From a virus, in IMG/VR virus record IMGVR_UViG_3300010938_000281, positions 1 to 64,000 of that record: 64,000 bases of DNA; one strand, given 5' to 3'. Position 1 is the first letter of the stretch; each line of letters starts with the position of its first letter. Positions 4,263 to 24,396 of this stretch are shown here, piece by piece. Both the position numbers and the translations under genes were made by a program. The notes under the pieces were generated by a model that saw only the letters and a program-made list of their open reading frames with translations, made no database searches and was not told the origin of the DNA.

Positions 4263-5201
4263 ATGCAAAAAGTATTATTATTATCATGCGTGGTAGGATT
4301 ATGCTTACTTATATCTTCTACAATGGCAGATATGCCCGATGTAGAGTTGCATACTAAGTGTTTATACCCGGTAGTAAAGATTCTTTTATCTGATGGTGGT
4401 GGTGGTTCTGGAGTAATTGTTAGGTCTTTCAAAGTTAAAGAGGGAGAATATACAAATATAGTTATTACCGCCGGACATATACTAACGCAAGATATTGAGG
4501 TACTTGTTCCTAAATATGAGAACTGGTCTGTTCTAAAAGAGTATGTTAAGTATCCGTGTGGTATAGTAACTGCATCTAATAAATACGATTTAGGAATCGT
4601 TGCTTTTTATAGCAAAGAACCAATGTATACGGCTAATATTGATTTTACCGCTAAGTATTACATAGGGTCTAAAATTATAAAGATGGGGTATGGGGTATTG
4701 GACGAAGCTAGGTTGGACAGTGGAGAAATTACGTCTGTAAAATTTGCTAGTAAAGACTTGTTTAAGGATTGTATTCGTATGAATAATCCAACCACGTTGG
4801 GGGATTCGGGTGGGCCGTGCTATCTACAAAGTAGTAATAAACTTATAGCAATAAATCGCGGTATGAGAACTTATAACGGTCAAGGTCTTCCACATCACGC
4901 ATTTGCTACTCCTATTACATTTTTACAAGAGTGGAATAAAGAACAGGGTAACACACTAAACTATACGTTTGATACGAATATACCTGTAAATATAGATATA
5001 AAAGCTGCAAATAATAATTATATGGTTTTATTATTAACCAATCAGATTAACGATATAAACAAGAATATTGAGTCGTTAATTATGAAGCGTAATTTGATAA
5101 TAGAGAAAATGGGACAGATAGTAAATAATGTAGAACCTATAATACCAGAAGTTGACCCCGGCGAACCAACAGATGGTGTTCCGCCACCACCTACAGAATA
5201 A
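4263..5201 (+). CDS. Trypsin-like serine protease with N-terminal signal/TM segment
   Basis: GSGVI, ITAGH (His), YDLG (Asp), GDSGGP (Ser) triad; hydrophobic N-terminus; C-terminal coiled-coil-like and Pro-rich tail. Confidence 0.85.
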   Translation: MQKVLLLSCVVGLCLLISSTMADMPDVELHTKCLYPVVKILLSDGGGGSGVIVRSFKVKEGEYTNIVITAGHILTQDIEVLVPKYENWSVLKEYVKYPCGIVTASNKYDLGIVAFYSKEPMYTANIDFTAKYYIGSKIIKMGYGVLDEARLDSGEITSVKFASKDLFKDCIRMNNPTTLGDSGGPCYLQSSNKLIAINRGMRTYNGQGLPHHAFATPITFLQEWNKEQGNTLNYTFDTNIPVNIDIKAANNNYMVLLLTNQINDINKNIESLIMKRNLIIEKMGQIVNNVEPIIPEVDPGEPTDGVPPPPTE

Positions 5202-5225
5202 TTTGATAATTTATTAGGACAACAA

Positions 5226-6611
5226 ATGATTCCATTGAATAATCATACTCACTACTCACTACTGCAAGGCTATTGTAAACCGGCCAAACTAGCAAAACTT
5301 GCTGGCGAGTTGGAATATAACTCTATAGCTATATCAGATATAGATAGTCTGTCTGGTACTGTTAACTTTATGGACTCTTTAGAAAAGACCGGCATCAAAC
5401 CTATTATTGGTACTAAGTTACCGTATGTTGATGGCGGTTATATTTTTTTGATAGCTAAAAATTTAACGGGGTGGAGAGAGCTAATCTGTCTTAATCAGGT
5501 TATTACATCTGGTGAACTAATTAACGACCCTATGCTTAAAACTGCAAAAAATTGCGTTTGTATAACCGGAGATGTTGGAAGTACCCTGTTTTCATATCTA
5601 GTTAAGCAGAACTCTGTTTTTGCTTCCACAAATCCTACACACTCATTATCCTTCTACCTACGGGATGAGTATAATAGAGTAATCTACGAACATTTATCAA
5701 AACTAAAGACAATCTTCAAAGATGACCTATATGTAGGAATACAAAGATGTAACCAAGTCTCTATACCTATTGATAAAATAGCTGCCGATATATTTGAATA
5801 CAACGCTAGTTGTGTAGGTATTAAAACCGTAGCCCTAAATAATACATTTGTCCATAAAGAGTCTGAAATGGAAGAGTTGCAGATTCTACTTTGCTCTAAG
5901 GAAAAAAGTAAATTCGCATCAGTTAAGGATAGAATTCAAACGGACGAGAAAGCTAATTTATACCGCTTCTTTAACGATAAGAATTTCGCCCTTTATTCAA
6001 AAGATTATTATAAACAAATCTATTCTCCAGAACAAATTGCTGTAACACAAGAAATCTCGGATAAGATAGAGAACTTTACTCTACTAGCCAATCCTAAAGC
6101 TCCAAATTTTGTATGTCCAGATGGTATGTCTCAAAAAGACTATTTGTTACACTTGTGCAGGGCCGGTTGGCAAAGAATTCTTCCTCGTATTGACCAAAAT
6201 AGAACACAAGAGTATGTTGATAGAATCAAGCACGAGCTTGATGTTATTAACCGTGCTGCTATTGAGGGTTATTTTTTGGTTGTACAAGATTATGTTAATT
6301 GGGCTAAAAATGAAGGTATGTTAGTTGGCTGTGGTAGAGGATGTTTTACGCCAGATTCTAGGGTTAAAATGTCTGATGGGCTATTTTGCCCTATATCATT
6401 AGTTAATATTGGTGATAGAATTATAGATGCTTATGGTTTTATACAGACAGTGTATGATATTTTGGAATATGATATAAGCGAAGAAATTGTAGAGTTAGAA
6501 TTTGAAAATGGTAAAATAATTAGATGCACAAAAGACCATATGTTTTTAACAGACCGTGGATGGGTGGAAGCTATAAATCTAACAGAAGATGATAATATTA
6601 AGGATGTTTGA
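5226..6611 (+). CDS. dnaE: DNA polymerase III alpha piece 1 (PHP domain to VGCGRG) fused to split intein N-half
   Basis: HTHYSL, GIKPIIG, LIAKNLTGWREL, YVDRIKHELDVI, GYFLVVQDYV, VGCGRG; then intein block A CFTPDSRV (6342) and block B CTKDHMF. Confidence 0.92.
   Translation: MIPLNNHTHYSLLQGYCKPAKLAKLAGELEYNSIAISDIDSLSGTVNFMDSLEKTGIKPIIGTKLPYVDGGYIFLIAKNLTGWRELICLNQVITSGELINDPMLKTAKNCVCITGDVGSTLFSYLVKQNSVFASTNPTHSLSFYLRDEYNRVIYEHLSKLKTIFKDDLYVGIQRCNQVSIPIDKIAADIFEYNASCVGIKTVALNNTFVHKESEMEELQILLCSKEKSKFASVKDRIQTDEKANLYRFFNDKNFALYSKDYYKQIYSPEQIAVTQEISDKIENFTLLANPKAPNFVCPDGMSQKDYLLHLCRAGWQRILPRIDQNRTQEYVDRIKHELDVINRAAIEGYFLVVQDYVNWAKNEGMLVGCGRGCFTPDSRVKMSDGLFCPISLVNIGDRIIDAYGFIQTVYDILEYDISEEIVELEFENGKIIRCTKDHMFLTDRGWVEAINLTEDDNIKDV
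6342..6608 (+). mobile_element. Split intein 1, N-part (89 aa)
   Basis: Begins with Cys immediately after DnaE GRG; TxDH block B; ORF stops after block B; acidic. Confidence 0.9.
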
Positions 6612-6669
6612 TAAAAATACATCCTCGCCAGCATCTTTTCTGTATATAATACTACAGAGGAGATAAAAT

Positions 6670-7533
6670 ATGAATACGATTACCTTGAAAAATTTTCAAG
6701 AAATAGATTATAACACTAAAGGGATATCTAATCATAAACTTATAGACTGTATATGTATAAGGTGTAATTCGTCTTTTATATATACATCAGTTAAAAATTT
6801 TATGAAGAACAGAATAACTAATATTGAAAATAAAGTATTGTGGAATACGTGTCATAAGTGCTGGCTTAAAATAAATACTTCAGAATCTAAAGTGTGGATT
6901 GAGAAAAATAGAAAAGCTCAACTTATAGCGCAAAATAAACCAGAACAAAAAATAAAAAACTCTAAAAGGGTGTCGGAGTCTTGGACATATGAAAGGAAAA
7001 TTAAAAATTCCAAATTACTAAAAGATAGGTGGAAAAATGATAAAGATTTTGCTGAAAAAGCATTAAAAAATTTATCTTGGACAAACAAATTAGACGTTAG
7101 TAGATTTAATACTTTATTAAAATCATCTATTGGTATTGGTGGACTTAAGGGTATATATAACAATATTAGATACGATAGTTCTTTAGAATTATCTTTCATA
7201 TTATGGTGTTTTGATAATAGTATAGATGTTCGTAGATACGACCTAGACCCTATTAGATATTTAGATGAAAATAATATAAGTAGATTGTATATACCAGATT
7301 TTATTATTACTAATAATATTATTGTAGAAATTAAGGGTTTTGGAATATATTATCAGAAAAACTTTGATAGAAATATTAAAAAATTCCAAGCCTTAAAGAG
7401 TTGGTGTAAATCTAATAATTTTAATAATAGACTGTTATTAGGCGATGATTTAATTTTGAAGAAAAACTATAAAAGAGCCAGAAAGCTACACCATGAAAAT
7501 AAAAAAGAAAACGCTTATAAAATACAGTGGTAA
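6670..7533 (+). CDS. Free-standing homing endonuclease, PD-(D/E)XK TnsA-N-like, between intein halves
   Basis: YDSSLELSF, YIPDF, IVEIKG; N-terminal CxxC/CxxC and NUMOD-like basic repeats; very AT-rich; own SD GAGGAG. Confidence 0.75.
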   Translation: MNTITLKNFQEIDYNTKGISNHKLIDCICIRCNSSFIYTSVKNFMKNRITNIENKVLWNTCHKCWLKINTSESKVWIEKNRKAQLIAQNKPEQKIKNSKRVSESWTYERKIKNSKLLKDRWKNDKDFAEKALKNLSWTNKLDVSRFNTLLKSSIGIGGLKGIYNNIRYDSSLELSFILWCFDNSIDVRRYDLDPIRYLDENNISRLYIPDFIITNNIIVEIKGFGIYYQKNFDRNIKKFQALKSWCKSNNFNNRLLLGDDLILKKNYKRARKLHHENKKENAYKIQW

Positions 7534-7597
7534 AGTCCACGACCTGTCTGTTGAAAATACACATTCTTATAATATTGAGGGTTTAGGTGTACATAAT
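7493..7597 (+). mobile_element. Split intein 1, C-part
   Basis: Basic N-terminus, block F VHDLSV, block G HN followed by +1 Ser. Confidence 0.9.
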
Positions 7598-8356
7598 TCC
7601 GCCGCCGGATGTTTAACTTCATATCTTCTTAATATTACAAGTATTGACCCAATCGTATACGGTTTAATGTTTGAAAGATTCTATAATGAGGGTAGAAACT
7701 CTCCAGGTAAAACCTCTTTCCCTGATATTGATGTAGACTTTCCGGTATTTGGAAGAGAAAGGGTTATTGAGTATATTAGACAGAAGTACGGTAGAAACCA
7801 AGTATCTCAGATATTTACACTGCAAGAAATTCAGGGTAGGAGCGCCATTCGAGAGGTTCTTAGAGTATACGCCGCTTGCCCACAAGAGTTTATTAACGAA
7901 ATCAGTAAAAAGTTGCCACAAAAAGCATCTATTGCTGATAAACTGGAGGAAGCTAAAGAAACCTCAATCATTCGTTGGACATTAGAAAACGAACCAGATA
8001 TTCTTAAAGATTGGTGTGAAATCAAAGATGACGAGCTTGTTGGAGAGTATGCTTTCTATTTTGATAAAGCTATCCAAATCGAAGGAACCTTCAAAGGTTA
8101 TGGTAAGCACGCATCCGCAGTAGTTATTGCAAATGAACCTATTGCCGGTATATGTCCTATGGTTAAAGATAAGAGTTCAGACGAGTTCATTGCCGCTATT
8201 GAATATGAAGAACTAGAAAAAATGGGACTTATGAAAGTAGATATTCTCGGTTGTATTTCGCTAGATAAGTTGGCCGCTGTAAACGACTTACTTCAATTCG
8301 GAGAAATTAGAGGTATTGTATCTCAAGAAAACGGTGAAAACACCTCTGAGGAATAG
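7493..8356 (+). CDS. dnaE: Split intein C-half (35 aa) fused to DnaE piece 2 (catalytic palm)
   Basis: MKIKKK...VHDLSV..HSY...VHN|SAAG; FERF, FPDIDVDF, GKHASAVVI, GLMKVDILG; no intein at the C-terminus. Confidence 0.92.
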   Translation: MKIKKKTLIKYSGKVHDLSVENTHSYNIEGLGVHNSAAGCLTSYLLNITSIDPIVYGLMFERFYNEGRNSPGKTSFPDIDVDFPVFGRERVIEYIRQKYGRNQVSQIFTLQEIQGRSAIREVLRVYAACPQEFINEISKKLPQKASIADKLEEAKETSIIRWTLENEPDILKDWCEIKDDELVGEYAFYFDKAIQIEGTFKGYGKHASAVVIANEPIAGICPMVKDKSSDEFIAAIEYEELEKMGLMKVDILGCISLDKLAAVNDLLQFGEIRGIVSQENGENTSEE

Positions 8357-8443
8357 TTTGAAAAATTAGCTATAAAATCACCGTACCCGACAGGAAACTT
8401 GTGTTCTAATAATAGAAGTATTATTTTACACATGGAGACTGTT

Positions 8444-8981
8444 ATGAAAAAAAATACAAATAACAAAAGATGCGATTTACGACCTTTACATAGATAAAGG
8501 GTTAACGGCAGAACAAATAAGTAAACAGATGAACGTATCTAAAAGCACAATCTATAATAGAATATTTAAGTACGGGATAAAAAGAGACTTCGTTTCAAAG
8601 TATATTGGTAAAAAATTTGGAATGATTACAGTTATTAAACCGTTAAGCACCAAAACCAAATGGAACCACAGAGAGTTTGAATGCTTGTGCGATTGTGGTA
8701 TTATCAATGTTGAGAATATGTAAAGAAAATAAATTTAGCTGCGGTTGCGTACAAAAACGAAAGTTGATATAAATGTGAAAGTTTCAAAGTCACAAAGTAA
8801 ACAAAAATTAAGAACAGCGTCGTTAGATAGAATTGATAGTACAAAAAACTATACTATTGATAATATACAATGGGTTCACAAAGACGTTAATAAGATGAAA
8901 ATGGATTTTTCTCAAGAATATTTTATAGAAATGTGTAGATTGGTAACACTAACTTGTAAGGATAAACAAAATGTCACATAA
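8444..8981 (+). pseudogene. Degraded HNH homing endonuclease
   Basis: Frameshift in an A8 run after ATG 8444; IGKKFGMITV..ECLCDCG fragment; separate frame with ASLDRIDS.KNY..DNIQWVHKDVNKMK. Confidence 0.75.
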
Positions 8982-9246
8982 GTCGGATTTGCACAAGGCT
9001 TTAGATACTATGACAAGACTTGGTATTGATGTGGAGTACGGTCCACTAACACTATGTAATCTTGGACATTTCTCTATTACAAGAAATATCCTTGAGCGTA
9101 AGTTTCAAGTAGACTGCGATTCTGCCGAGATTAGATTTACTCAAATGTATAATAACTACTATACAGCTATTGATAAATTTATATCTCTATACGCCGCTCT
9201 AAAGAGTAAAGAGATGCAACTAGAATTAAAGGAGAAGAAAAATTAA
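8971..9246 (+). CDS. Hypothetical protein
   Basis: 91-aa ORF overlapping both neighbours. Confidence 0.6.
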   Translation: MSHKSDLHKALDTMTRLGIDVEYGPLTLCNLGHFSITRNILERKFQVDCDSAEIRFTQMYNNYYTAIDKFISLYAALKSKEMQLELKEKKN

Positions 9247-9802
9247 GGTTGGTACAAAAAGTCTTCTTTTTGGAGCGCATCAGTTTGTTATCCATCCTTT
9301 AATTGTATCTTACTGCTATATTAAACTGTATGGTTGGACTTGGGATTGGCGTATATGGCTTTGCTTTTTTATCCATGATTTGGGATATTTAGGTTGCGAC
9401 AATATGGACGGTGATGATGGATTTGAAAAGAGGGGTGGAAAGTGGCATCCGCTAAAATCTTATATGTGGTTAATGGATTGGGGAATGAAGAAAACCGCCT
9501 GGTTCTGTGTCTATCATTCAAGAACTATAGCTAATGAAATGAGCTTTATGGATGGTGCTAATCTATCAAGGTTGGCCGTAGCAGATAAGTTGGCTGTAGT
9601 ATACACACCATTATGGATGTATTGTAAGCAAGAACTTCATGAGTATATGATTATGGAAGGATATAATTTATCATTTACGTTGTGTAAATCTAGTCTGCTA
9701 TATTATAATTTATGTACAAGTTGGAAAACAATGGTTGATGTTAAGTGCTTGAAATTTGTACAAGAGTGGAAGGATAAAGCATATGATATCGGACAATATT
9801 GA
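9242..9802 (+). CDS. Hypothetical HD-like phage protein, probable ATT start
   Basis: Frame open from ATT 9242 (IKVGTKSLLFGAHQF...IHDLGY..NMDG...YHSR...ADKL); SD AAGGAG at 9229-9234; in-frame TAA at 9227. Confidence 0.65.
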   Translation: MKVGTKSLLFGAHQFVIHPLIVSYCYIKLYGWTWDWRIWLCFFIHDLGYLGCDNMDGDDGFEKRGGKWHPLKSYMWLMDWGMKKTAWFCVYHSRTIANEMSFMDGANLSRLAVADKLAVVYTPLWMYCKQELHEYMIMEGYNLSFTLCKSSLLYYNLCTSWKTMVDVKCLKFVQEWKDKAYDIGQY

Positions 9803-9994
9803 TAAATTAGAGGACGTGTGGAAAAGCGCATTATATCCATCAACAGAACAGGATAAGATAAATGCTGAAAAGTTATGGGGGAACTTGATGCTGATGGTAT
9901 GTATCTATTAGAAAGTATCCGTACAGGACTAAAGCCCGTATAAATGTTAGTGTGGAAAATGGGATAGTTACAGATATTTTGTAGGATAAAAACT

Positions 9995-10576
9995 ATGATA
10001 TACAACAATATTAAACAGGGTATTATAGATTGTAAAAATTGTCCATTATCCGAACAACTAGATTATGGTTGTATGCCTGTATGGGGTGCTGGTAGTAAGC
10101 TGGCGGATATTTTAATTCTTAACCTAAGAGCCTCACAAGAGGCTCATTTAATTGAGAAGCCTATCGAAACAAAATATTCACTACTACTACACAAGATACT
10201 CGAAAAGTCCGGCCTGGAAGATAAAAATGTATTTGTAACAAATCTATTGAAATGTAAATGCGATACTACTCCAGCCAAACCTTTTAAGGCCAATCTGGAA
10301 ACTTGTAAAAGGTCATGGTTGTATAAAGAAATAGAGTGTATTCCTAGTATTAAAAGTATCTTGGTTATGGGTAAGAATACATTACAAAGATTTCTTGATA
10401 ATAAAATGGATATAGATGAAGTTAACGAAATTACATATAGTGTGAACGGTCTGCGTGTTTTTGCTACATATTCGCTCGAAGAAATATTTCGCAAAGGTTC
10501 TGTTTATATGGACCACTCAGTTAAAATTCTTAAGAATATAAGGGATATAAATGCTAAAATCGAAACTTCAAGGTGA
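9995..10576 (+). CDS. Uracil-DNA glycosylase family 4-like protein with degenerate active-site motifs
   Basis: CKNCPL, VWGAG..ADILIL, FVTNLLKC, C..WLYKEI, ILVMGK. Confidence 0.7.
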   Translation: MIYNNIKQGIIDCKNCPLSEQLDYGCMPVWGAGSKLADILILNLRASQEAHLIEKPIETKYSLLLHKILEKSGLEDKNVFVTNLLKCKCDTTPAKPFKANLETCKRSWLYKEIECIPSIKSILVMGKNTLQRFLDNKMDIDEVNEITYSVNGLRVFATYSLEEIFRKGSVYMDHSVKILKNIRDINAKIETSR

Positions 10577-11027
10577 TGAGGTAGAAGACACTCTTGTATC
10601 GGTATTAAGTAAATTTGGACAAACACAAAAAAATACAGAATATGGACTTAGATATGAGTATGATGTTGAGTGTAATATTTCTGATGGAAAAGTAAACTAT
10701 AAACTAACATTTGAGTGTAAGAACGACGTTATGGCAAAAAAAACAGGCAACGTCGCAATAGAATATCACAATTCTAAGAAAAATGAACCTTCTGGAGTTT
10801 CGAGAACCTCTGCTGTATTTTGGGCGCATAAAATCGGGGGAATTATCTGGATTGTGTCTGTTAAAGCGTTGAAGGATTTTATTGATGTCACAAAGCCGGT
10901 TAAGGTTATAGAGAGCGGCGGCGATGATAATGCTAACTTACTAATTTACCGTATTGATGATTTTACAACAATCTGTAAACCTTTAGAGGAGTTTCAACAT
11001 GCGAACGATTTTATTGATATGCTTTAG
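10551..11027 (+). CDS. Putative PD-(D/E)XK nuclease-fold protein
   Basis: G..VE, YDV, FECKND, TGNVAIE pattern. Confidence 0.55.
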   Translation: MLKSKLQGDEVEDTLVSVLSKFGQTQKNTEYGLRYEYDVECNISDGKVNYKLTFECKNDVMAKKTGNVAIEYHNSKKNEPSGVSRTSAVFWAHKIGGIIWIVSVKALKDFIDVTKPVKVIESGGDDNANLLIYRIDDFTTICKPLEEFQHANDFIDML

Positions 11028-11316
11028 TCTTATTACTACTATTGGATTTGCCGGTGGCCCACATACTGGGCCGGGGGGCACTTCTCTTCATCGTAATATA
11101 GGAATTGCTCCGTATGGTACGGGGTATGTAACACAGAACGTATTTGGAGGTCGGGATTACTACGACTTACACTCTCGTCGTTTAGGATATAGTAAACCAT
11201 ATGGTAGCGGTTATAAATACTACAATAGAAACGGGGCTTATATTATGAGGTCTAACGGTGGTAGAGTATACGTTAATCCAAACGCTCCACAATACATGCC
11301 GTTTCTAGGAGAATAA
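10999..11316 (+). CDS. Small exported Gly/Tyr-rich protein
   Basis: Signal peptide-like MRTILLICFSLITTIGFA, then G/Y-rich beta-hairpin-like repeats. Confidence 0.55.
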   Translation: MRTILLICFSLITTIGFAGGPHTGPGGTSLHRNIGIAPYGTGYVTQNVFGGRDYYDLHSRRLGYSKPYGSGYKYYNRNGAYIMRSNGGRVYVNPNAPQYMPFLGE

Positions 11317-11322
11317 TATCGT

Positions 11323-12027
11323 ATGAATTTGAACAATATAATTGTCTACGATTTTGAAACGGGAAGTAAAAATCCAAATCTAACACAGGTTACTCAGTTA
11401 AGCGCGGTGGTGCTAGACCCGCGCACGTTTACAATGATTGAAGGGGCGGTATTTAATACAGAAGTAAAGCCAATTTTTGATGATGAAAAAGCTCTAGCCG
11501 CCGGATTGGAACCGGTTCAACAAGAAGCTCTTGATATAACAAGAAAAACAAGAGAAAGGTTGGAAAAAGCTCCAACAATTGATGTGGTGTGGCCCGATTT
11601 TATTGCGTTTACTGAACGTTATAAAAGTGGCCGTCGAACAAGTAACTGGGATAATGTAATAGCTGCCGGTTTTAATATCGTTAATTTCGATTCTATAATT
11701 ATCAATAGGCTATGTAAACAATATGGACCTTATGATGATAAGTATTCATCTCAGAAAATATTTCATCCAGTTTATTGTATAGATATCATGCACGATATTT
11801 GGCGATGGACCGATAATGAAAAAATTAACAGCGCCAACTCAAAAAGCCTAGACTCTGTGCGCGAGTGGTTAGGAATGCCTAAAGACGGCGCTCACGATGG
11901 TCTTAATGACGTTCTCGACTGTGCAGAATTGCTTAAGAGGTTTATGGAGAAATATAGATTCTTCTATAAGAAAACCAAGTTTGAAGGCGCTATGGCCGGA
12001 TGGAAACGTCCAGAGGTGAAGGTATAA
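11323..12027 (+). CDS. DEDDh 3'-5' exonuclease (DnaQ/epsilon-like)
   Basis: ExoI VYDFETG, ExoII AGFNIVNFD, ExoIII AHDGLND. Confidence 0.88.
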   Translation: MNLNNIIVYDFETGSKNPNLTQVTQLSAVVLDPRTFTMIEGAVFNTEVKPIFDDEKALAAGLEPVQQEALDITRKTRERLEKAPTIDVVWPDFIAFTERYKSGRRTSNWDNVIAAGFNIVNFDSIIINRLCKQYGPYDDKYSSQKIFHPVYCIDIMHDIWRWTDNEKINSANSKSLDSVREWLGMPKDGAHDGLNDVLDCAELLKRFMEKYRFFYKKTKFEGAMAGWKRPEVKV

Positions 12028-12068
12028 GTAAGATTTTTGTAGAAAAATTTCTAATACGAGGGGTTGAT

Positions 12069-12974
12069 ATGGATTATTCCTTTGAATGCGGTTGTAAGTT
12101 TCCAATAGTGGGCGAAGGAATAAAAGGTATAGATGGTTTACCGCCTATTAAGATTGACTACGAGAATCTTAATCTAAGATGTCCGCACACATGGGAGCTT
12201 TTTGCAAAAGGATATACTAAGGGTATATTTCAACTAGAAACTAATCTAGGACAGGGGTGGTCTAAAAAACTACAGCCGGTTACTATTGAGGAAGTTTCGG
12301 CGCTTACAGCTATATTGAGACCTGGGATGTTGAAGTCAATGTTAGACGGAAAGTCTATGACCCAACATTTCGTAGATAGAAGAAATCTACAGGAAGATTT
12401 TACCTACTTCCACCCTCTTGCCGAACCAATTCTTTCGGAAACTCACGGTACAATGACGTATCAAGAGCAAATTCTTTCTATTGCTAAAATATTTGCCGGT
12501 TTCAGTCTACAGCAGGCCGATACTCTTCGTAAAGCTATGGGTAAGAAAAAAGCGGACGTAATGGCTAAGTGTCGTGAAGAGTTCGTAACCGGATGTAAAA
12601 ATATGGCTATCATTACAGATGATGATGCTATAGCTTTATTTGATATTATTGAAAAGTCAAATAGGTATTCGTTTAATAAGTGTATATCTCCCAATACAGT
12701 AGTATCAACTAAAGATAGAGAATTTATAACAATAGATGATTTAGCTATAGGCTCACAGATTCTTTGTCCGTCAGATATTGGTTGTACTGATACATACTAT
12801 GAAGTTATAAATAAATACGAAAATGGTAATAAAGAACTATACGAGATAGAGGTAGAAAGCGGGAATAAAATAGAATGTACCTTAGACCACGAGTTTTTGT
12901 GTGAAGACCTAGTTAAAAGACCTTTAATAGATATTTTGTCAGAAAATAGAAAAATAATGGTAGAAGATGATTGA
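12069..12974 (+). CDS. dnaE: DnaE piece 3 (fingers) fused to split intein 2 N-half
   Basis: GIFQLET, ALTAILRPG, ILSETHG..YQEQ, ADTLRKAMGKKK, YSFNK; then CISPNT (12681) and CTLDHEF; ATG 12069 with GAGGG SD. Confidence 0.92.
   Translation: MDYSFECGCKFPIVGEGIKGIDGLPPIKIDYENLNLRCPHTWELFAKGYTKGIFQLETNLGQGWSKKLQPVTIEEVSALTAILRPGMLKSMLDGKSMTQHFVDRRNLQEDFTYFHPLAEPILSETHGTMTYQEQILSIAKIFAGFSLQQADTLRKAMGKKKADVMAKCREEFVTGCKNMAIITDDDAIALFDIIEKSNRYSFNKCISPNTVVSTKDREFITIDDLAIGSQILCPSDIGCTDTYYEVINKYENGNKELYEIEVESGNKIECTLDHEFLCEDLVKRPLIDILSENRKIMVEDD
12681..12971 (+). mobile_element. Split intein 2, N-part (97 aa)
   Basis: Cys1 after FNK; block B CTLDH; acidic. Confidence 0.88.
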
Positions 12975-13182
12975 AGTTGACGGAGATTATTAGCATTCTA
13001 ATCCTAAAATATATCCAAACGGTCCAGTAACAACAATCCAAAAAAGAAACGGTTGTATTCAAAACAAGAAGGATAAATATTGTTTAGATAACAATCATAA
13101 GATTATTAGATTTTGGGAATCAGATATAATTAATAATATTGAGTATATAAAAGGGGTAATATTATGCACGCTGAAAGAATAG
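12967..13182 (+). pseudogene. Remnant of Vsr-like (EDxHD-type) homing endonuclease between intein halves
   Basis: Translates MIEVDGDY*HSNPK...KIIRFWESDI..*; TAG at 12991 falls where Trp of EVDGDYWH is expected; N-terminal part missing. Confidence 0.8.
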
Positions 13183-13277
13183 TATCTATTAAGTCTATAG
13201 GAGTACGTAGATGTGTAGATATAGAGGTAAATAGTAAACGTCATATTTTTTATGGTAATGGATTAGCAACCTCAAAC
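13164..13277 (+). mobile_element. Split intein 2, C-part
   Basis: Block F CVDIEV; ends S-N (no penultimate His); +1 Ser. Confidence 0.88.
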
Positions 13278-14279
13278 TCACACGCTATTAGCTATGGTCA
13301 AACTGCATATATGTGCGCTATCCCTAAACGCCATTTCCCTTTACACTTCTTTACTGCATGGTTGTCATATGCTGGTGGTAAAATGAAACCTAGAGAAGAA
13401 ATTGCGGAACTAATACAAGAGACAAAGAATTTTAATGTTTCTGTGGAAAATCCAAACATTTCCTATAAAAATCAAAATTTTGTTCTCGATAATGGTAAAA
13501 TAAGATACGGACTAGGCTCTATTAAATCTTGCGGCGCTGCGGAAGTGTCTAAACTTTTAATACTCCTACAAGATACCGAGAAAAGACTTGGTAAGAGCGT
13601 TAAAGATTTTACGTGGCATGAATTACTTACTAAGGTTTTACCATACTCAAGGAAAGATGTTGTTAATAACTTAATACACGCTGGTGCTATAAGCCAACAC
13701 GGCCTTACTAGAAACTATATGTTGTTTCAATATAATAAAATATGCGAGCTTAACGATGCGGAAATAGAGTGGATTAACAAAAACTCTAACTGTAATTCGC
13801 TATATGATGATATAGAGAATATGATACTTAATAAGAAAACAGTAGCTAAAAGAAAAGAAAAACTGAAAAATCTGCTTACTTCATTAGCAAATCCACCCCT
13901 TAATTTAGATGATTCTATTGATGTTATAGCGAAAAGAGAAGAAGACGTTTTGGGTATATCCTTATCTTGTTCGCGACTTGATGCTAAAAATACCGGATTT
14001 GTTAATTGTACTTGTTTAGAGTTTAACAGGGGAGAAAAAATCAATAAAGTTATTATTGCCGTCCAACTTTCTCGTGTCACGGAATGGTCTCCTAAAGGTT
14101 CTGATAAGAAACTTTGTTTTTTAACGGGATACGATAAAACCGGCAAGATAGATATAATGGTCCCACACCAAGAATATGAGAAGTTTTCATTCTTATTGTT
14201 TAACGGAAACACCGTTGCAATTCATGGTAGTATAAACGCTAAATCTAATCTAACAGCAAAGGTGATAACACAACTATGA
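13164..14279 (+). CDS. dnaE: Split intein 2 C-half (38 aa) fused to DnaE piece 4 (HhH and OB-fold region)
   Basis: MHAERIVSIKSIG..CVDIEV...FYGNGLATSN|SHAISY; PNIS, IRYGLGSIK, LIHAGA, EEDVLGISLS, C-terminal OB fold. Confidence 0.92.
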   Translation: MHAERIVSIKSIGVRRCVDIEVNSKRHIFYGNGLATSNSHAISYGQTAYMCAIPKRHFPLHFFTAWLSYAGGKMKPREEIAELIQETKNFNVSVENPNISYKNQNFVLDNGKIRYGLGSIKSCGAAEVSKLLILLQDTEKRLGKSVKDFTWHELLTKVLPYSRKDVVNNLIHAGAISQHGLTRNYMLFQYNKICELNDAEIEWINKNSNCNSLYDDIENMILNKKTVAKRKEKLKNLLTSLANPPLNLDDSIDVIAKREEDVLGISLSCSRLDAKNTGFVNCTCLEFNRGEKINKVIIAVQLSRVTEWSPKGSDKKLCFLTGYDKTGKIDIMVPHQEYEKFSFLLFNGNTVAIHGSINAKSNLTAKVITQL

Positions 14280-14773
14280 TAGACGTTAGACAACTTCATA
14301 TAGATAATGGATATTTTGTTAAGCTAACAAATAATAAAGAGAGAAATATTTGTGTTGCCAAAATACCAGCTAATATATTCGTTGACCTACCAGAAACAAC
14401 AACAATCTACGAAATGGAAGATGAGAGGGTTTCTGTTTATAGGAACAAACGAAAGTTTCTATCTAAAAGATGTCCTAACTATGCAATAAGGGTTATGGTT
14501 TGGAGCCATCTACTAAGAATGCTTGAAGATAGGAATATGTATTCTATACCTGTTGTAGCGGAAGATAATGGTACTATATTAAAAGATTGTACTAATCTTG
14601 ATACAATTTTACCAATTACCTCTCTATTAGAAGAACCTGAGATTCACAACAATGTGGAACTCGAAATAAAGTTACTCGATGCTATAGCTAAATGTAGTAA
14701 GAGCGGAGTCGAACCGCCAAAAGAGGTTTTGGAGGGTTTTGTTGCTAGTGTAAATATGTTTAAGGGAGATTGA
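14276..14773 (+). CDS. Hypothetical protein
   Basis: 165-aa ORF, ATGA-coupled to dnaE piece 4. Confidence 0.6.
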   Translation: MIDVRQLHIDNGYFVKLTNNKERNICVAKIPANIFVDLPETTTIYEMEDERVSVYRNKRKFLSKRCPNYAIRVMVWSHLLRMLEDRNMYSIPVVAEDNGTILKDCTNLDTILPITSLLEEPEIHNNVELEIKLLDAIAKCSKSGVEPPKEVLEGFVASVNMFKGD

Positions 14774-14775
14774 TT

Positions 14776-15147
14776 ATGGCTGAACTAAATGCTCACGGCG
14801 CAATTATTATTTGTACAGAACTAGAATTAAAACCTGTACTTAGTACGTTCGTGCTAAACTTTTCTGGTAAGACTATTGAGCGTGTAAAGAATCAAACTAC
14901 CGGCGAATACGAATCGGTTCCACATTATTTCTCTTGGGAAATTTGGGATTCTGCCGCTAAGTTTCTTTCAGAGAACGCAAAACGGGGAGATAAAATCATA
15001 ATTCATAGCGCTACTCCTAGAGAGCATAAGTGGGTTAAGGACGGTAAGAATTTTTCAAAGGTTGTATTTAGAATAAATAAATTTGAGCTTTGCGGACTAC
15101 CACCACAGTTTTCTAGCGATACTAACGAGCCGGCGGTACAAAGCTAG
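14776..15147 (+). CDS. ssb: Single-stranded DNA-binding protein (OB fold)
   Basis: ELELK, HYFSWEIWDSAA, KRGD.I, REHKW..DGK..SK..FR pattern of bacterial-type SSB; position in replication module. Confidence 0.7.
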   Translation: MAELNAHGAIIICTELELKPVLSTFVLNFSGKTIERVKNQTTGEYESVPHYFSWEIWDSAAKFLSENAKRGDKIIIHSATPREHKWVKDGKNFSKVVFRINKFELCGLPPQFSSDTNEPAVQS

Positions 15148-15162
15148 TAGGATGTTACTAAT

Positions 15163-16761
15163 ATGACGAAGGTTTTAGTTTGTTCCGAATTTAGCCAAAT
15201 AGGTAGCGGTTATGGTACGTATACTAAAGAATTACTTGCCGGGTTTTTGAAACACGGAATTGAGTTTGCTGAAATGGCTTCGTATTGTAGGCCGGACGAT
15301 AACCGTATACAAAACTGTAGATGGCGTGTATATCCTGTAATGCCTCACACACAAGACGTTGATGGTTGGGATGTCTATAATTCTCACCCAGCAAACGCTT
15401 TTGGTAAACATATTTTTGAAGACGTATTACTTGATTATAAGCCAACACACGTTATAGATGTTAGGGATGTTTGGAATTTAACGCACGAACTAATATCCCC
15501 TCTTAGAGACTTTTATTCATATTGCATTATGCCAGCGGTAGATTCAGACCCACAAAGTAAAAACTGGCTCGATATGTATAGTAAAGCTGACGCTGTAGTT
15601 ACATACTGCGATTGGGCAACAAACCTACTTCATAGATATGGTCTTAAAAATGTTGTAGGTGCAGCATCGCCAGTACCGGCGGAAGAATTCAAACCTTTAC
15701 CAGATAGAGACAAATTAAAAGCTAGTCTAGGTCTTGGTGACGTTAAAATCGTCGGTACTGTTATGAGAAATCAGCCTAGAAAACTATTTCCTCATCTATT
15801 CAAAATGTTTCGCAAATATATCGAAACTAGCGGTCGTGACGATGTATATCTATACTGCCATACATCGTATCCCGACGTGTGGGAAATGGACGAGCTTCTT
15901 ATAGAACATAATATTGGACATAAGGTTATATTTACATATTACTGTCCTGCATGTAATTATATTGAAACGTCCTTCTATAAAGGTCCGTTTGCCGCATGTT
16001 CTCATTGTAATCAAAGAAATAGTCTAAAGTTACCAACCACATATCAACCAATATCTCAGTATTCACTTAATCAAATATACAACCTATTTGACCTATATAT
16101 ACAATATGCGGCTTTAGAGGGTTATGGTATTCCACTTGCCGAAGCTGCCGCCGCTAGTATTCCAAGTATGTGTGTGGACTATTCAGCTATGGAAACCTTT
16201 ATTAAGGAATCTAATACTGTACCTATTAAGGTAAAAAATTATCACATTGAGCCGGAAACCGGTAGAAGATTTGCTTTACCAGACGAAGAGGATGCTGTCG
16301 CTAAAATAACAGAATTATTATCTCTACCAAAGTCCGAACTAGAGCAACTTGGTAAAATGTCAAGATTTATGTACGGCGTGCGTAACACCGATGATATAGT
16401 AGAAACTTGGATTAAAGCTATAAATGGAACAAAACCAAGACTAAATTGGGACTCTCCAAAAAGACAATATAGAAACCCACAAGACTATCCAAAAAATTTA
16501 ACACATGAATTATTCGCTAAATGGATAATAGTAGATGTTCTACAAGACCCTTCTTATATAGGTTCTTATATGGAAGCGAGAATGGTAAGAGACCTAGAGA
16601 ACGGATTTGCTCTTGTTGGACATGATAATAAATATTTCTATGAGGCTCTTAATATACCATCACAAAGATTTCAGCCTTTTAGTCAAGAGATAGCTTTTAA
16701 TCATTTTAGAAACCTGTTACAAGAAAAATTAGTTTGGGAAGATAAAAGGATAGGTGTATGA
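15163..16761 (+). CDS. Glycosyltransferase, GT-B/GT4
   Basis: SGYG, VMRNQPRK, EGYGIPLAEA (EX7E); CxxC zinc-ribbon insert. Confidence 0.85.
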   Translation: MTKVLVCSEFSQIGSGYGTYTKELLAGFLKHGIEFAEMASYCRPDDNRIQNCRWRVYPVMPHTQDVDGWDVYNSHPANAFGKHIFEDVLLDYKPTHVIDVRDVWNLTHELISPLRDFYSYCIMPAVDSDPQSKNWLDMYSKADAVVTYCDWATNLLHRYGLKNVVGAASPVPAEEFKPLPDRDKLKASLGLGDVKIVGTVMRNQPRKLFPHLFKMFRKYIETSGRDDVYLYCHTSYPDVWEMDELLIEHNIGHKVIFTYYCPACNYIETSFYKGPFAACSHCNQRNSLKLPTTYQPISQYSLNQIYNLFDLYIQYAALEGYGIPLAEAAAASIPSMCVDYSAMETFIKESNTVPIKVKNYHIEPETGRRFALPDEEDAVAKITELLSLPKSELEQLGKMSRFMYGVRNTDDIVETWIKAINGTKPRLNWDSPKRQYRNPQDYPKNLTHELFAKWIIVDVLQDPSYIGSYMEARMVRDLENGFALVGHDNKYFYEALNIPSQRFQPFSQEIAFNHFRNLLQEKLVWEDKRIGV

Positions 16762-17867
16762 AGGTTTTATACATTGGGCATTTTACCAACGGAACTTCTG
16801 GTTGGAGACAGGCCGCGCTGGACTATCTATTAGCTATGGATAGTGTTGGTATAGATGTCGTTCCTCGTTCTGTTAGACTGAACGATAGCAAACCAGAGAT
16901 GCCGGAAAGATACAAAGAGCTTGAATCCAAGTCTATAAAGGGTTGCGATGTAGTTATCCAGCACGTTCTTCCTCATCATCTAAAATACGACGGTCGTTTT
17001 AACAAAAACATTGCCTTATGCGTTTATGAATCCGCTGGACAATTCTTGAGCAATTGGGACTCTAAGATTAACATGATGGACGAGCTATGGGTTCCATCAG
17101 AATTTACAAGAAACGTATTTGATTCTAGTGGTATTACTAGACCTATTAAGATAGTTCCACACACTTTTAATTTGAATAAATATAAGCAAAAGTATGATAA
17201 GATTGATAATAGTGATATTAGCGGTAACTATATATTCTATACTATAGCGGACCTTAATATACGCAAAAATCTAAGAGCTATTGTTGAGGCTTTTCACCTA
17301 GAATTTACACCAAACGAACCGGTAAAACTAATTATCAAAAGTCAAAAATTCGGCAAGTCGGCACAAGAGACATTCGAGCTTATAAAGAGCGAGTGTGATA
17401 AGATTAAGGACGGTATGAAGCTCTATAGAAACAGAGACGTTTATCATCGCGAGCTTATTATTACAACACAACTATCTGAATTAGAATTGATGCAACTACA
17501 CGCTACTGGAAATTGTTATGTTAATAGCTCTCACGGCGAAGCGTGGTGTATCCCATTATTTGAAGCTATGGCTATGGGAAAACAGCTTATATTTCCTGAG
17601 CATATGTACGACTATCTCGATGACTATTATCCAAGTCAAGGTATGTATCCAATAACATCTAGCGAAAATATTTGTTTTGGATGTACAGACACTTTTTGGG
17701 AAATAGGGTCGTCACGAGAATCATGGAACGAATACTCGATAAATAATATTGCCGAACAGATGAGACGTGCCTATAACGAGAGAAATTTACAAAACGATAA
17801 TTCTTATATTGCCGAGAATTACAATTATGAAACAGTCGGAAATCATATAAGGAGCATGTTATGGTAA
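16758..17867 (+). CDS. Glycosyltransferase, GT-B/GT4
   Basis: ELWVPS, RKNL, SHGEAWCIPLFEAMAMGK. Confidence 0.85.
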   Translation: MKVLYIGHFTNGTSGWRQAALDYLLAMDSVGIDVVPRSVRLNDSKPEMPERYKELESKSIKGCDVVIQHVLPHHLKYDGRFNKNIALCVYESAGQFLSNWDSKINMMDELWVPSEFTRNVFDSSGITRPIKIVPHTFNLNKYKQKYDKIDNSDISGNYIFYTIADLNIRKNLRAIVEAFHLEFTPNEPVKLIIKSQKFGKSAQETFELIKSECDKIKDGMKLYRNRDVYHRELIITTQLSELELMQLHATGNCYVNSSHGEAWCIPLFEAMAMGKQLIFPEHMYDYLDDYYPSQGMYPITSSENICFGCTDTFWEIGSSRESWNEYSINNIAEQMRRAYNERNLQNDNSYIAENYNYETVGNHIRSMLW

Positions 17868-18865
17868 GCTCGGTAGGCTCCATTCTTCGTAAAGCCAATC
17901 TAAAGTCAGACGAAAAACTTAATATACTTACATTCGTAACACATGAAAGATATGAACCAAACCTATGTTTGACAAGACATAATTTTTTCTCCTTGTTTGG
18001 TGACGGTACTAGAAGTTGGAATCCTAAAGTAGCGCCTATACCGGATAATTATTATCCATATCAGGTACAACAATGGGATAATTCCATGCTTACTAATTTG
18101 CCTATGGATATCGAGATTGATTGTATTATAGCTCAAAATAGATTCGCTCATATTAAAATAGCTAAAATGATACAACAGTATTTAGATGTTCCTATTATTA
18201 GTATCGAACATACAGACACGATGCCTGATTGGCCCGAATACTATATAAAGGAACTGGCCGGTTTAGGTGGAGATATCAACGTATTTATATCAGAGTATAA
18301 TAAAGAGCGTTGGATGAATAAAGATGGTGTTGTTATAGAACATATGATAAACGCCGATACGTTCTGTCCCGGTAAAGATGTAAGACAGAAATATGTACTG
18401 TCTATGTGCAACGATTGGATTAACAGAGATATGCCTTGCGGTTTTTCTATTTGGCAGCAAACTATACAGGGTTTCCCGTATAAGGTTGTTGGTGAAACAC
18501 CTGGATTATCTAAAGGTACTAATTCACTAGAAGAATGTATTAAAGAACTGCAAACAGCGGCTATATTCCTTAATACCTCACAGTTTTCACCCATACCAAT
18601 GTCTGTGTTGGAAGCTATGTCTTGTGGTTGTGCTATAGTTAGCTCTGCCACATGTATGATTCCAGAAATTATTGAACATGGTGTTAATGGATTCATCTCT
18701 AATGATATTAGTAAACTACGTCAATATATAGACGAACTTTTAATAGACGATAATCTTAGAGTTAAGATGGGTGAAGCGGCTAGACAAACAATAATTGATA
18801 GATTTAATAAAGAGAGGTTTTTGAATGGATGGAATTCAGTCTTTGATAGAATTAGAAATAGTTAA
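17861..18865 (+). CDS. Glycosyltransferase, GT-B/GT4
   Basis: FLNTS...PMSVLEAMSCGCAIV, EIIEHGVNGF, MGEAARQ. Confidence 0.88.
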   Translation: MVSSVGSILRKANLKSDEKLNILTFVTHERYEPNLCLTRHNFFSLFGDGTRSWNPKVAPIPDNYYPYQVQQWDNSMLTNLPMDIEIDCIIAQNRFAHIKIAKMIQQYLDVPIISIEHTDTMPDWPEYYIKELAGLGGDINVFISEYNKERWMNKDGVVIEHMINADTFCPGKDVRQKYVLSMCNDWINRDMPCGFSIWQQTIQGFPYKVVGETPGLSKGTNSLEECIKELQTAAIFLNTSQFSPIPMSVLEAMSCGCAIVSSATCMIPEIIEHGVNGFISNDISKLRQYIDELLIDDNLRVKMGEAARQTIIDRFNKERFLNGWNSVFDRIRNS

Positions 18866-18872
18866 TAGGGTT

Positions 18873-19667
18873 ATGGATAGATTTGATGCGTTTGGTTTCA
18901 AAGAACATATGTATCCTAACGCTATTGGTATGTGGAAAGAAGAACAATCTTCTTTAGTATACGCTTGTACTCTAGCTGACCCGAACAAAGATTGGATTGA
19001 AATTGGTTCTTTTATGGGTGGCTCTGCCGTACTAATGTGTTTAGCAAAGCGAGCTATTGGCGGGATAGGGAAGGTAATTTCTGTAGATATTGATTTTTCT
19101 GCTTTTCAAGGAGCTTTTAATAGAAATGTTTATCGTGTAGGTAAGTTTCAAGATATACACTCTAAACTAGAGATGAGTAGTTTTGAATTAGCTGATACTA
19201 TTAAAAATCTAAACGGTACTAAATACGAACCGAAATATTCCCTAGCTTTTATAGATGGATGGCATAGTTTTAAGGGTGTGCTTACGGATTTTAATACTAT
19301 AGATGAATATATGGGACCGGGAGGTATAGTGTTGTTTCATGATACATACCCTCAACCATATCCAGAAGGTAAACTATTAGAATTTACGATAAATATGTAC
19401 AAGCACTACGACGAGTGGTGGTCTGAAGAACTTCCAGGAAATAATAAATTTACCTCTCAACAAGAATACTATCAAGCAGAAAAAAAACAAAACTTTAGAA
19501 TAGACGAGGCTATAGCTTTTATTCTTGAAAAAAGACCTTATGAGCTTATAAGTTTACCAACAATTCATGGTCAGACGCATTTTGATAGAGTTAAAGAGTA
19601 TATCCACGGAACCACAAGTCCGTATCCCGGCATAGTTGCTATTCGTAAATTAGAGGAGTATAAATGA
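18873..19667 (+). CDS. Class I SAM-dependent methyltransferase (Methyltransf_24-like)
   Basis: IEIGSFMGGS, ISVD, FIDGWH, PGGIVLFHD. Confidence 0.85.
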   Translation: MDRFDAFGFKEHMYPNAIGMWKEEQSSLVYACTLADPNKDWIEIGSFMGGSAVLMCLAKRAIGGIGKVISVDIDFSAFQGAFNRNVYRVGKFQDIHSKLEMSSFELADTIKNLNGTKYEPKYSLAFIDGWHSFKGVLTDFNTIDEYMGPGGIVLFHDTYPQPYPEGKLLEFTINMYKHYDEWWSEELPGNNKFTSQQEYYQAEKKQNFRIDEAIAFILEKRPYELISLPTIHGQTHFDRVKEYIHGTTSPYPGIVAIRKLEEYK

Positions 19668-20083
19668 AGATTACATTGGGAAAATCTCATAGGAAAGACA
19701 CGATAAACTTTGGTCTTAATTATAAGTCTGCTTTTGAAGAAATTGACGATGGTGAATGTACAGAAATCCACGCCCCAGAAATTCTTGACTATATACCAGA
19801 ACACGAATTTAGATTATTTATAGATACCCTGGTTAACAAGATGCGTCACGGCTGTGAGCTTACCATTGGCGGTAGTGACCTATACGAATCTATGAAACAA
19901 TTGTTTCGTGGAGACCTTAATGTTTATACTATGAATAATGTATTATACGGAAATAAAGAGGTTTCTAAAAGAGGCCAATATTCTATGAATTCTGTTTCGG
20001 ATATTCTTTTACAACGCGGACTTAAAATTCTTGAAAAGAATATGGATAGAAATCAGATGTATATTAAGGCGGTTAGAGAATGA
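19664..20083 (+). CDS. Hypothetical protein, degenerate methyltransferase-like
   Basis: EIHA.EILDYI...KMRHGCEL resembles the C-terminal part of small Methyltransf_11-like proteins. Confidence 0.4.
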   Translation: MKITLGKSHRKDTINFGLNYKSAFEEIDDGECTEIHAPEILDYIPEHEFRLFIDTLVNKMRHGCELTIGGSDLYESMKQLFRGDLNVYTMNNVLYGNKEVSKRGQYSMNSVSDILLQRGLKILEKNMDRNQMYIKAVRE

Positions 20084-20790
20084 AAACAGCTTGCGAATAT
20101 TGCATTTTTGCAACACGTATGAAGAATAAAAAACAGCGCGGGTGCAAACTAAATCGTCTTGATATATTTAAGCAACAGGAACGAGCAGAGATACAAGAGA
20201 ACGGATACTATCTTATAGACGGCTTGTGCAATACATGTAGGAATGTATATTGGAAAGAATATATACTAAATCCAAACCCCGACAAGCTAATAAACGTCGT
20301 TCTTAAAGAGGTGGAAATAAAGTATGATGTACTTATTAGTATAGATGATAGTACAATTGAGGAGGTTAAAGATTCGATTCTTTACGCTAGAACATTAGCT
20401 ATACCACCAAATAATATTGTTATGACCGGCGGTCTAAGCGAACATAATATGAAGATAGTGACAACATTTATAGATACACCTTCATGTCTTGAAAACTCTG
20501 ATGATAAATTCGCTCAGTCGCACAAATATATTAACGAGACGAATGCAACCTATCTACTATTTATAGTGCCGGGTATAGAGTTTCAAATAGATGCAGAATT
20601 ACTAGAAGTAAATCGTAAACTTAATATACTACTTAATCCTATTCATTATATAAACGGAGAAAACTATTTCTTAGTTTCTCGTTTTCTGTATCTATCTAAT
20701 ATCTACGAACCAAATCCTATACAATCAATTATAGAAAAGTACGAAGAAAATGGGAAACCCAAAAGTCAATGTGTTGATAGCCAACTATAA
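20080..20790 (+). CDS. Hypothetical protein with N-terminal Cys cluster (glycosylation cluster)
   Basis: CEYC..C..CNTC; overlaps both neighbours. Confidence 0.5.
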   Translation: MKTACEYCIFATRMKNKKQRGCKLNRLDIFKQQERAEIQENGYYLIDGLCNTCRNVYWKEYILNPNPDKLINVVLKEVEIKYDVLISIDDSTIEEVKDSILYARTLAIPPNNIVMTGGLSEHNMKIVTTFIDTPSCLENSDDKFAQSHKYINETNATYLLFIVPGIEFQIDAELLEVNRKLNILLNPIHYINGENYFLVSRFLYLSNIYEPNPIQSIIEKYEENGKPKSQCVDSQL

Positions 20791-21538
20791 TTATGGCGAG
20801 TGGATTATGGACGCTGTTAATAGCGCTATCGACCAAACATATCCAGATATTGCTATCACTATAATAGACGACCTATCCAACGACGATTCTTGGATGAAAA
20901 TTTATAAGAATCTATTTCAGAATAGACCACATAATAAAATTTTACCCTCCGACTTTGATATTAGAACTTGTTCTATAGCCAAAAACGGTCGAGATATACC
21001 GGTAATGGCTATCAGGCTAAATAAACATGGCGGTCCAAGTATAGCGAGAAATATTGGTATTTCTTATACTTTAGACAGCTCCGATTTCTATATGATATTA
21101 GATGCGGACGATATTATGCAACCTAATAAGGTATATAGGTGTCTTGAAGAAGCTATGAAACTTCCGGGTATTATAGGTATCGTGTACGGAGACTATACAA
21201 CGCTTAATGTAGATAATGGTATAGAACGTATTGAATATAAACCCGATTTTGATATTGAAAGGCTTTATAACGAGTGTATTATTCATAGCGGTTCTCTTAT
21301 TTCAAAAGAAGCCCTATTGTTTGCTAGGGACCAATACGGATTTTACGACCAAAGATTAAGGGTTGCGGAAGATTACGATTTGTGGTTTAGGATTACGAAA
21401 AAGTATACCGCCGTACATATTCCAGAATCGCTTACAACGGTTAGAGTAACTCCTAAAAATTCCACCAATCAGGTTGATATAGACACAAGAAACGCATGTC
21501 ACGCTTTAATGTATAGTAAACTTCAAGGTCAACAATGA
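20750..21538 (+). CDS. Glycosyltransferase family 2
   Basis: VLIANYN, IDDLSND, ARNIG, ILDADD (DxD), EDYDLW. Confidence 0.9.
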   Translation: MGNPKVNVLIANYNYGEWIMDAVNSAIDQTYPDIAITIIDDLSNDDSWMKIYKNLFQNRPHNKILPSDFDIRTCSIAKNGRDIPVMAIRLNKHGGPSIARNIGISYTLDSSDFYMILDADDIMQPNKVYRCLEEAMKLPGIIGIVYGDYTTLNVDNGIERIEYKPDFDIERLYNECIIHSGSLISKEALLFARDQYGFYDQRLRVAEDYDLWFRITKKYTAVHIPESLTTVRVTPKNSTNQVDIDTRNACHALMYSKLQGQQ

Positions 21539-24387: not shown

Positions 24388-24396
24388 GGGATTTAT

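Follow-up and report, generated by a model that had tools for sequence, protein, structure and literature searches.

A four-piece dnaE in a phage genome: two split inteins and an intein-free break extend a known fractured-gene layout

Fractured genes of environmental phages, in which a split intein interrupts an essential replication gene and the two halves flank a free-standing endonuclease gene, were described by Dassa, London, Stoddard, Schueler-Furman & Pietrokovski 2009 (PMC2677866). In those loci a hairpin precedes the endonuclease start, the endonuclease gene overlaps the downstream piece, and later endonuclease loss is considered possible; three of them lie in DnaE, one of these also holding part of a second intein, and fractures lacking an intein were reported too (SbcD-like, gp43). 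Here we analyze the dnaE gene in a 64,000-nucleotide window, the first 64 kb of the 90.5-kb linear IMG/VR virus record IMGVR_UViG_3300010938_000281 (estimated to be 59% complete). This gene shares with the published fractured genes a split intein with an endonuclease gene, a hairpin, and an overlap, but unlike them it contains two different split inteins plus an intein-free break, and thus lies in four pieces. Its one intact endonuclease gene is TnsA-N-like, whereas theirs are GIY-YIG or Vsr-like.

Other systems share parts of this organization. As in the window, cyanobacterial Ssp and Npu DnaE are encoded in separate genes rejoined by a split intein near FNKSH. The cyanobacterial intein site precedes C-F-N-K, four residues upstream of FNK/S (a slash marks a splice junction throughout). 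Cyanobacterial DnaE has Cys at position +1 and a one-chain product, whereas the window gene has two split inteins, Ser+1 junctions, and a predicted two-chain final product. The split dnaE of Trichodesmium likewise contains several inteins within the same gene (Liu & Yang 2003, as cited in PMC2874743). In T4-related Aeromonas phages, as cited in PMC2677866, the replicative family-B polymerase is encoded as two genes, gp43A and gp43B, with mobile DNA between them, no intein, and presumed non-covalent assembly; the window gene belongs to another polymerase family, its gap constantly holds an exonuclease gene in related phages, and its C-terminal half has a conserved three-Cys head. In some jumbo phages a ‘minimal’ Pol III module is split into two proteins (PMC7824862). 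Among solved inteins, gp41-1 (PDB 6qaz, 6riz) is the nearest relative of the second intein in the window, and both have Ser+1 and a short C-terminal half, although gp41-1 resides in a helicase gene and ends in HN, whereas the window intein resides in dnaE and ends in SN.

Four open reading frames (ORFs; pieces 1 to 4 in Table 1) encode one DnaE in order, as a first-pass annotation made from the sequence alone had proposed. They leave no gap or overlap in coverage, and Pfam domains tile across them in the order PHP, palm with three catalytic Asp, fingers, helix-hairpin-helix (HhH), and oligonucleotide-binding (OB) fold, while Hint or Intein_splicing matches occupy the tails of pieces 1 and 3. 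The three Asp lie in extein 2 (PDIDVD and KVDILG), followed by a tail of ~20 amino acids (aa) and a stop, without an intein. When the joined exteins were aligned in silico to the intact 1134-aa DnaE of locus L005 and to the intein-free two-gene versions of L003 and L004 (L numbers denote related loci, described below), both intein junctions were seamless, with neither gap nor duplication. Removal of the inteins restores the GRG-SAAG and FNK-SHA motifs, and GRG/SAAG and FNK/SH(A/S) are continuous in all three reference loci. The predicted spliced chains measure 624 and 537 aa, compared with 645 and 541 aa for the natural halves of L004. Piece 3 begins at 12069 with MDYSFECGC, preceded by GAGGGG, and the same start occurs in 55 relatives. 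The possibility that the stops are read artefacts is excluded because identical stops and starts recur in independent contigs.

Table 1 Features of the dnaE locus and of the surrounding replication module, in window coordinates.
Feature	Position	Strand	Description and evidence
Piece 1 ORF	5226-6611	+	461 aa
DnaE extein 1	5226..6341	+	372 aa; PHP and first part of palm, ending GCGRG; Pfam PHP E 6e-16; DNA_pol3_alpha 2-66
IntN1, N-half of split intein 1	6342..6611	+	89 aa + stop; GRG/CFTPDS; Cys1; block B CTKDH; Hint/Intein_splicing
RNA hairpin pairing the GAGGAG ribosome-binding site of the TnsA-like gene	6633..6664	+	12 bp; TATAAT-like loop
Putative homing endonuclease	6670..7533	+	Free-standing PD-(D/E)xK, TnsA-N-like, 287 aa; Pfam, PHROG endonuclease
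Piece 2 ORF	7493-8356	+	287 aa
IntC1, C-half of split intein 1	7493..7597	+	35 aa; ends VHN before Ser+1, VHN/SAAG; Intein_splicing positions 100-155; kept in 6 other lineages
DnaE extein 2	7598..8356	+	252 aa; remaining palm and thumb; Pfam DNA_pol3_alpha 66-260, E 2e-48
Broken HNH homing endonuclease	8529..8981	+	Two ORFs (64 + 78 aa); PHROG E 1.6e-6, 2e-13
Family-4 uracil-DNA glycosylase (UDG) gene	9995..10576	+	Pfam UDG; NCBIfam UDG_fam4 E 7e-12, below cut-off
DEDD 3'-5' exonuclease gene (epsilon-like)	11323..12027	+	Pfam RNase_T; PHROG ‘DNA polymerase exonuclease subunit’ E 1e-25
Piece 3 ORF	12069-12974	+	301 aa; alternative longer start at 12000
DnaE extein 3	12069..12680	+	204 aa; first part of fingers, ending YSFNK; Pfam DNA_pol3_finger 18-164, E 5e-44
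IntN2, N-half of split intein 2	12681..12974	+	97 aa + stop; FNK/CISPNT; Cys1; block B CTLDH; Hint
Vsr-like homing endonuclease remnant	12964..13179	+	C-terminal 72 codons; frame +1
Piece 4 ORF	13164-14279	+	371 aa
IntC2, C-half of split intein 2	13164..13277	+	38 aa; ends TSN before Ser+1, TSN/SHAISY; end-to-end alignment with the gp41-1 6qaz C-terminus
DnaE extein 4	13278..14279	+	333 aa; remaining fingers, HhH, OB fold; Pfam HHH_6, tRNA_anti-codon
DnaB-like helicase, primase, deoxynucleoside monophosphate kinase			Replication module
PD-(D/E)xK Dna2-like nuclease and trypsin-like peptidase			Replication module
Single-stranded DNA-binding protein (SSB)-like gene			Replication module

Both intein pairs are short Ser+1 pairs of 89/35 and 97/38 aa, with boundaries exactly where the annotation had placed them. 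Matches among PDB inteins include Spl DnaX, NrdJ-1, and Ssp DnaE for the N-terminal half of intein 1 (IntN1), and a DnaE intein and gp41-1 for that of intein 2 (IntN2). The residues required for splicing (residue 1, block B, block F, the terminal Asn, and Ser+1) are kept in seven lineages for intein 1 and in eleven for intein 2. Residue 1 is Cys in IntN1 and IntN2, and Ser in some relatives of intein 2. The block B Thr-x-x-His reads TKDH in IntN1 and TLDH in IntN2, with Thr replaced by Ser in the intein 2 members L102, L103, L109, and L110. All examined lineages retain both block F residues (Asp and His), as well as the terminal Asn and Ser+1. The C-terminal end of intein 1, HN/S, matches canonical block G. 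The IntN1 site and stop are identical in L036, L044, L050, L057, L092, and L100, and TSN/SH at the end of intein 2 is kept in 10 other lineages, contiguous forms among them. A contiguous intein 2 homologue from L071 is predicted to adopt the HINT fold (predicted local distance difference test score, pLDDT, 91), and gp41-1, Npu DnaE, and Ssp DnaB superpose on it at template-modelling (TM) scores of 0.84-0.89; its best structural match is gp41-1 (TM 0.84-0.88, 34-35% identity), and NrdJ-1 was also matched.

The inteins are conserved at or above the level of the exteins, with 56-68% identity for IntN1 against 28-32% for extein 1, a pattern that fits either constraint or lateral spread. The IntN2 parts of L092 (4985-5785) and of P0041, a protein encoded on a 111-kb contig, are nearly identical, yet their finger exteins differ, as if the intein had recently moved laterally from one diverged dnaE gene to another. 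The first-pass annotation held that the layout needs two mutually orthogonal split inteins in one cell. That need is real, but orthogonality here would be unremarkable: the two inteins share only ~27% identity (27 of 97 positions in the N-half and 10 of 38 in the C-half), and 15 of 16 split inteins, gp41-1, NrdJ-1, and IMPDH-1 among them, showed negligible cross-reaction in Pinto et al. 2020 (PMC7090010), so that by analogy orthogonality would be the expected default.

Relatives were collected from IMG/VR in three scans, seeded with extein 2, an extein 3 alignment, and an IntN2 alignment. The scans gave 115 loci, 101 of them distinct, onto which the eleven parts of the window locus were mapped; the sample is non-random because one seed is the intein itself. 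The intein-less two-gene dnaE that the annotation had suggested looking for is the most common arrangement, found in 67 of the 101 distinct loci with a DEDD exonuclease gene between the halves. These loci share with the window a DnaE that is not a single polypeptide, since two chains would remain in the window even after both splicings. A fused dnaE gene occurs in a few, more distant loci (L005, L102, L103, L111, and others). Split intein 1 at GRG/S is added in four loci, with the same endonuclease in L036, L044, and L050 and without it in L057; split intein 2 at FNK/S is added in five loci with a spacer of ~900 nucleotides (nt); and four loci carry a contiguous mini-intein at FNK/S. Contiguous members include L071, L073, L093, and L112. 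In L071 and L073 the contiguous intein 2 is combined with a split intein 1 holding a 68-aa endonuclease remnant. Locus L092 has exactly the four pieces of the window, with both endonuclease genes intact, and because its exteins are only 28-54% identical to those of the window, the layout is neither a one-off nor an assembly error. A large metagenome protein collection contains ~85 protein clusters (232-322 aa) built like piece 3, with a fingers head followed by an IntN. A different fracture was seen in L039 (4114-7107) and in L040-L042 and L046, where an intein-free break just before PDIDID in the N-half produces a three-piece DnaE without an intein; in L039 a LAGLIDADG-type gene lies between the N-half parts and the downstream part carries a leader of ~95 aa. 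The PDIDID fracture is combined with split intein 1 and contiguous intein 2 in L073 (4617-5978).

The intein-free break between pieces 2 and 3, with the exonuclease gene in its gap, is thus widespread and normal for this clade rather than a peculiarity of this genome. No intein motifs occur at the end of piece 2 or the start of piece 3. The N-terminal chain terminates ~20 residues past the third catalytic Asp, at the palm/fingers boundary, where split forms carry ~20 extra residues on the N-side and ~24 on the C-side relative to the intact DnaE of L005. At least five genes or gene remnants lie in the 3.7-kb gap: the HNH remnant, directly 3' of piece 2, the UDG gene, ORFs without an assigned function, and the exonuclease gene. 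The UDG gene is also present in the gap of L003, L011, L014, and L015, and the exonuclease gene, directly upstream of piece 3 in the window, separates the two halves of dnaE in nearly all relatives. An intact 212-aa homologue of the HNH gene occupies the corresponding gap of L057, and two copies are found elsewhere in L005. The gap of L092 contains a Glyco_transf_34-like ORF (4271-4981).

Downstream of the break, the C-terminal half opens with three cysteines, Cys7, Cys9 (as Cys7-Gly-Cys9), and Cys38, encoded at window positions 12087-12095 and 12180-12182 and invariant in 56 aligned C-halves. Neither the intact L005 nor the split forms L057, L071, and L092 have the motif. An AlphaFold2 (AF2) model of extein 3 (pLDDT 88), in which ~180-188 of 204 residues superpose on the Taq and E. 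coli Pol III alpha structures (4iqj, 2hpi, 2hnh), places Cys7 and Cys9 in a confidently predicted beta-hairpin turn and Cys38 at the start of a helix. As a guess, this head may be a metal or docking element. A complex prediction for extein 2 and extein 3 with zinc, using 56-row alignments, scored 0.20 against a mark of 0.32 and is uninformative on binding. An earlier candidate explanation of the head as a duplicated KxDILG strand, drawn from a four-sequence alignment, was dropped, the match being weak and out of register.

As in fractured genes, an endonuclease gene lies between IntN and IntC, intact in intein 1 and as a remnant in intein 2, and intein 1 also shows the upstream hairpin and the downstream overlap. 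The 287-aa ORF within intein 1 matches Pfam Tn7_TnsA-like_N (E 3e-6; score 28.1 bits, cut-off 26.5), and its last 41 nt (7493-7533) are shared with the beginning of piece 2. Homologues stand between IntN1 and IntC1 in L036, L038, L044, L050, and L092, and remnants in L071 and L073. The hairpin ahead of this gene has a predicted energy of -13.2 kcal/mol (z -3.58), with 2 of 200 shuffled sequences equally good, and a similar hairpin occurs at the same place in L092. At intein 2, the remnant occupies the 189-nt spacer in another frame and is 51% identical over 69 aa (E 1e-20) to the C-terminal stretch (residues 229-297) of the 297-aa endonuclease that is intact in L092; a TAG at 12991-12993 stands where the L092 homologue has Phe (DGDYFH). 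The L092 endonuclease itself has no Pfam match, a weak match to Vsr TIGR00632 (E 0.003, far below cut-off), and a weak match to PDB 3r3p, an intron endonuclease (E 0.05).

The data establish how the genes are built, what they are homologous to, which splicing residues are conserved, and how the relatives form a comparative series; splicing itself, the absence of cross-splicing, and association of the halves are inferred. The locus would have started as the clade-typical two-gene dnaE, [PHP+palm/thumb], DEDD exonuclease gene, [fingers+HhH+OB]. Later, both halves would each have been broken by a mobile intein, one with a HINT domain that was in itself divided by a free-standing homing endonuclease gene. 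Intein 1 has an intact endonuclease gene, with its ribosome-binding site presumably sequestered in the hairpin, whereas all that is left of the intein 2 endonuclease is a 72-codon remnant, so this split would now be fixed. Four polypeptides would be made; IntN1 would pair with IntC1 and IntN2 with IntC2, and each pair would trans-splice at its Ser+1 junction to give the 624-aa N-chain and the 537-aa C-chain, which, probably together with the exonuclease encoded in the gap, would assemble non-covalently as the replicative polymerase. We consider this scheme of four products, two independent trans-splicings, and a non-covalent two-chain enzyme, probably with the exonuclease, likely on the sequence data. 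The annotation had likewise proposed a non-covalent pair with both chains made by trans-splicing, and the comparative data fit that proposal, as the spliced lengths match the L004 halves and the splicing residues are kept.

Three observations weigh against this scheme. Intein 2 ends in SN/S, with Ser preceding the terminal Asn where the canonical residue is His. The two pairs do not differ in charge polarity (IntN -11 and -13; IntC +3 and +3), so electrostatics alone does not enforce cognate pairing. Finally, the record is only ~59% complete, and another polymerase could therefore lie in the unseen part. The first of these leaves room for an alternative, which we judge unlikely, that splicing has been lost in one intein or in both, which would then act only as non-covalent clasps and make the enzyme a three- or four-chain assembly; the missing penultimate His of TSN is what speaks for it. 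Apart from that residue and the few block B Thr-to-Ser changes, the nucleophiles and the block B, F, and G residues are nevertheless kept in both inteins in every lineage, and the penultimate Ser of intein 2 is common to 11 lineages, including the contiguous forms L071, L093, and L112, which end in the same way and must splice in cis to yield a working DnaE.

Incompleteness of the record, together with the three mobile endonuclease genes or remnants within the locus, would also accommodate a fragmented dnaE that is a decaying pseudogene in a phage relying on the host polymerase or on another of its own. This is very unlikely: all four ORFs are open with catalytic motifs intact, a phage as diverged as L092 retains the same four open pieces, and the ~85 clusters of piece-3-like proteins argue in the same direction. 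The four-piece dnaE, of the bacterial Pol III alpha type, is the only DNA polymerase detected in the record, and neither a family A nor a family B polymerase (PolA, PolB) was found across the 90.5 kb. It is scarcely credible that a single chain arises across the palm/fingers break through RNA splicing, ribosome bypass, or a ligation that went unrecognised, for although the C-half head and N-half tail are extra sequence relative to intact DnaE, a group I or II intron was rejected when no Rfam intron or other RNA family was found in 4800-14800, intein blocks stand at neither end, a 3.7-kb gap with at least five genes and gene remnants, UDG and exonuclease included, would have to be crossed, and separate stops and starts are kept in >80 loci, in some of which the gap holds little beyond the exonuclease gene.

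A bolder extension of the two-chain, trans-spliced scheme is doubtful in our view: the two unrelated split inteins would act as fixed, mutually exclusive assembly steps, and the Cys-Gly-Cys...Cys hairpin would be a metal-dependent docking module replacing the covalent palm-fingers link. If this were true, polymerase assembly in this clade would be staged, and possibly regulated, rather than a tolerated scar of selfish DNA.

The dnaE locus sits on the + strand in a replication module (Table 1), and intein signatures in the record are restricted to dnaE. Structural genes are on the - strand; they include the large terminase and a probable tape-measure protein, encoded by a 2447-aa ORF (40661-48004) that follows a 243-aa ORF. 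Beyond the replication module, in the downstream direction, come several glycosyltransferase-like genes in a row (15163-25808). Scans for sigma-70 promoters and terminators gave nothing above background that could be linked to the dnaE pieces. No DNA match was found among GenBank phage records, where the top protein identity was 35-41%, and in GTDB genomes the phage-type gene appears on only four contigs of metagenome-assembled genomes, the other matches being ordinary cellular DnaE.

In an incomplete library of the literature we found no account of a natural gene that combines two split inteins with an intein-free break, nor of a two-gene phage dnaE with an exonuclease gene between the halves. 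The suspicion in the first-pass annotation that the four-part layout was undescribed stands to that extent, but the layout is not unique, as L092 shares its four pieces. The four-piece dnaE is a real, recurrent, and extreme form of the known fractured-gene layout, every component of which has precedent. The two natural split inteins, with Ser+1, short C-halves, and a shared cytoplasm, are candidates for orthogonal protein ligation. The locus illustrates the extent to which an essential enzyme can be broken up by selfish elements while the phage stays viable, and the relatives place the stages of gene breaking side by side, from a contiguous mini-intein to an endonuclease-split intein, one with a decayed endonuclease, and one with none. 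More broadly, it points to a very common and little-described two-chain Pol III alpha in aquatic phages, whose assembly is open to biochemical study.

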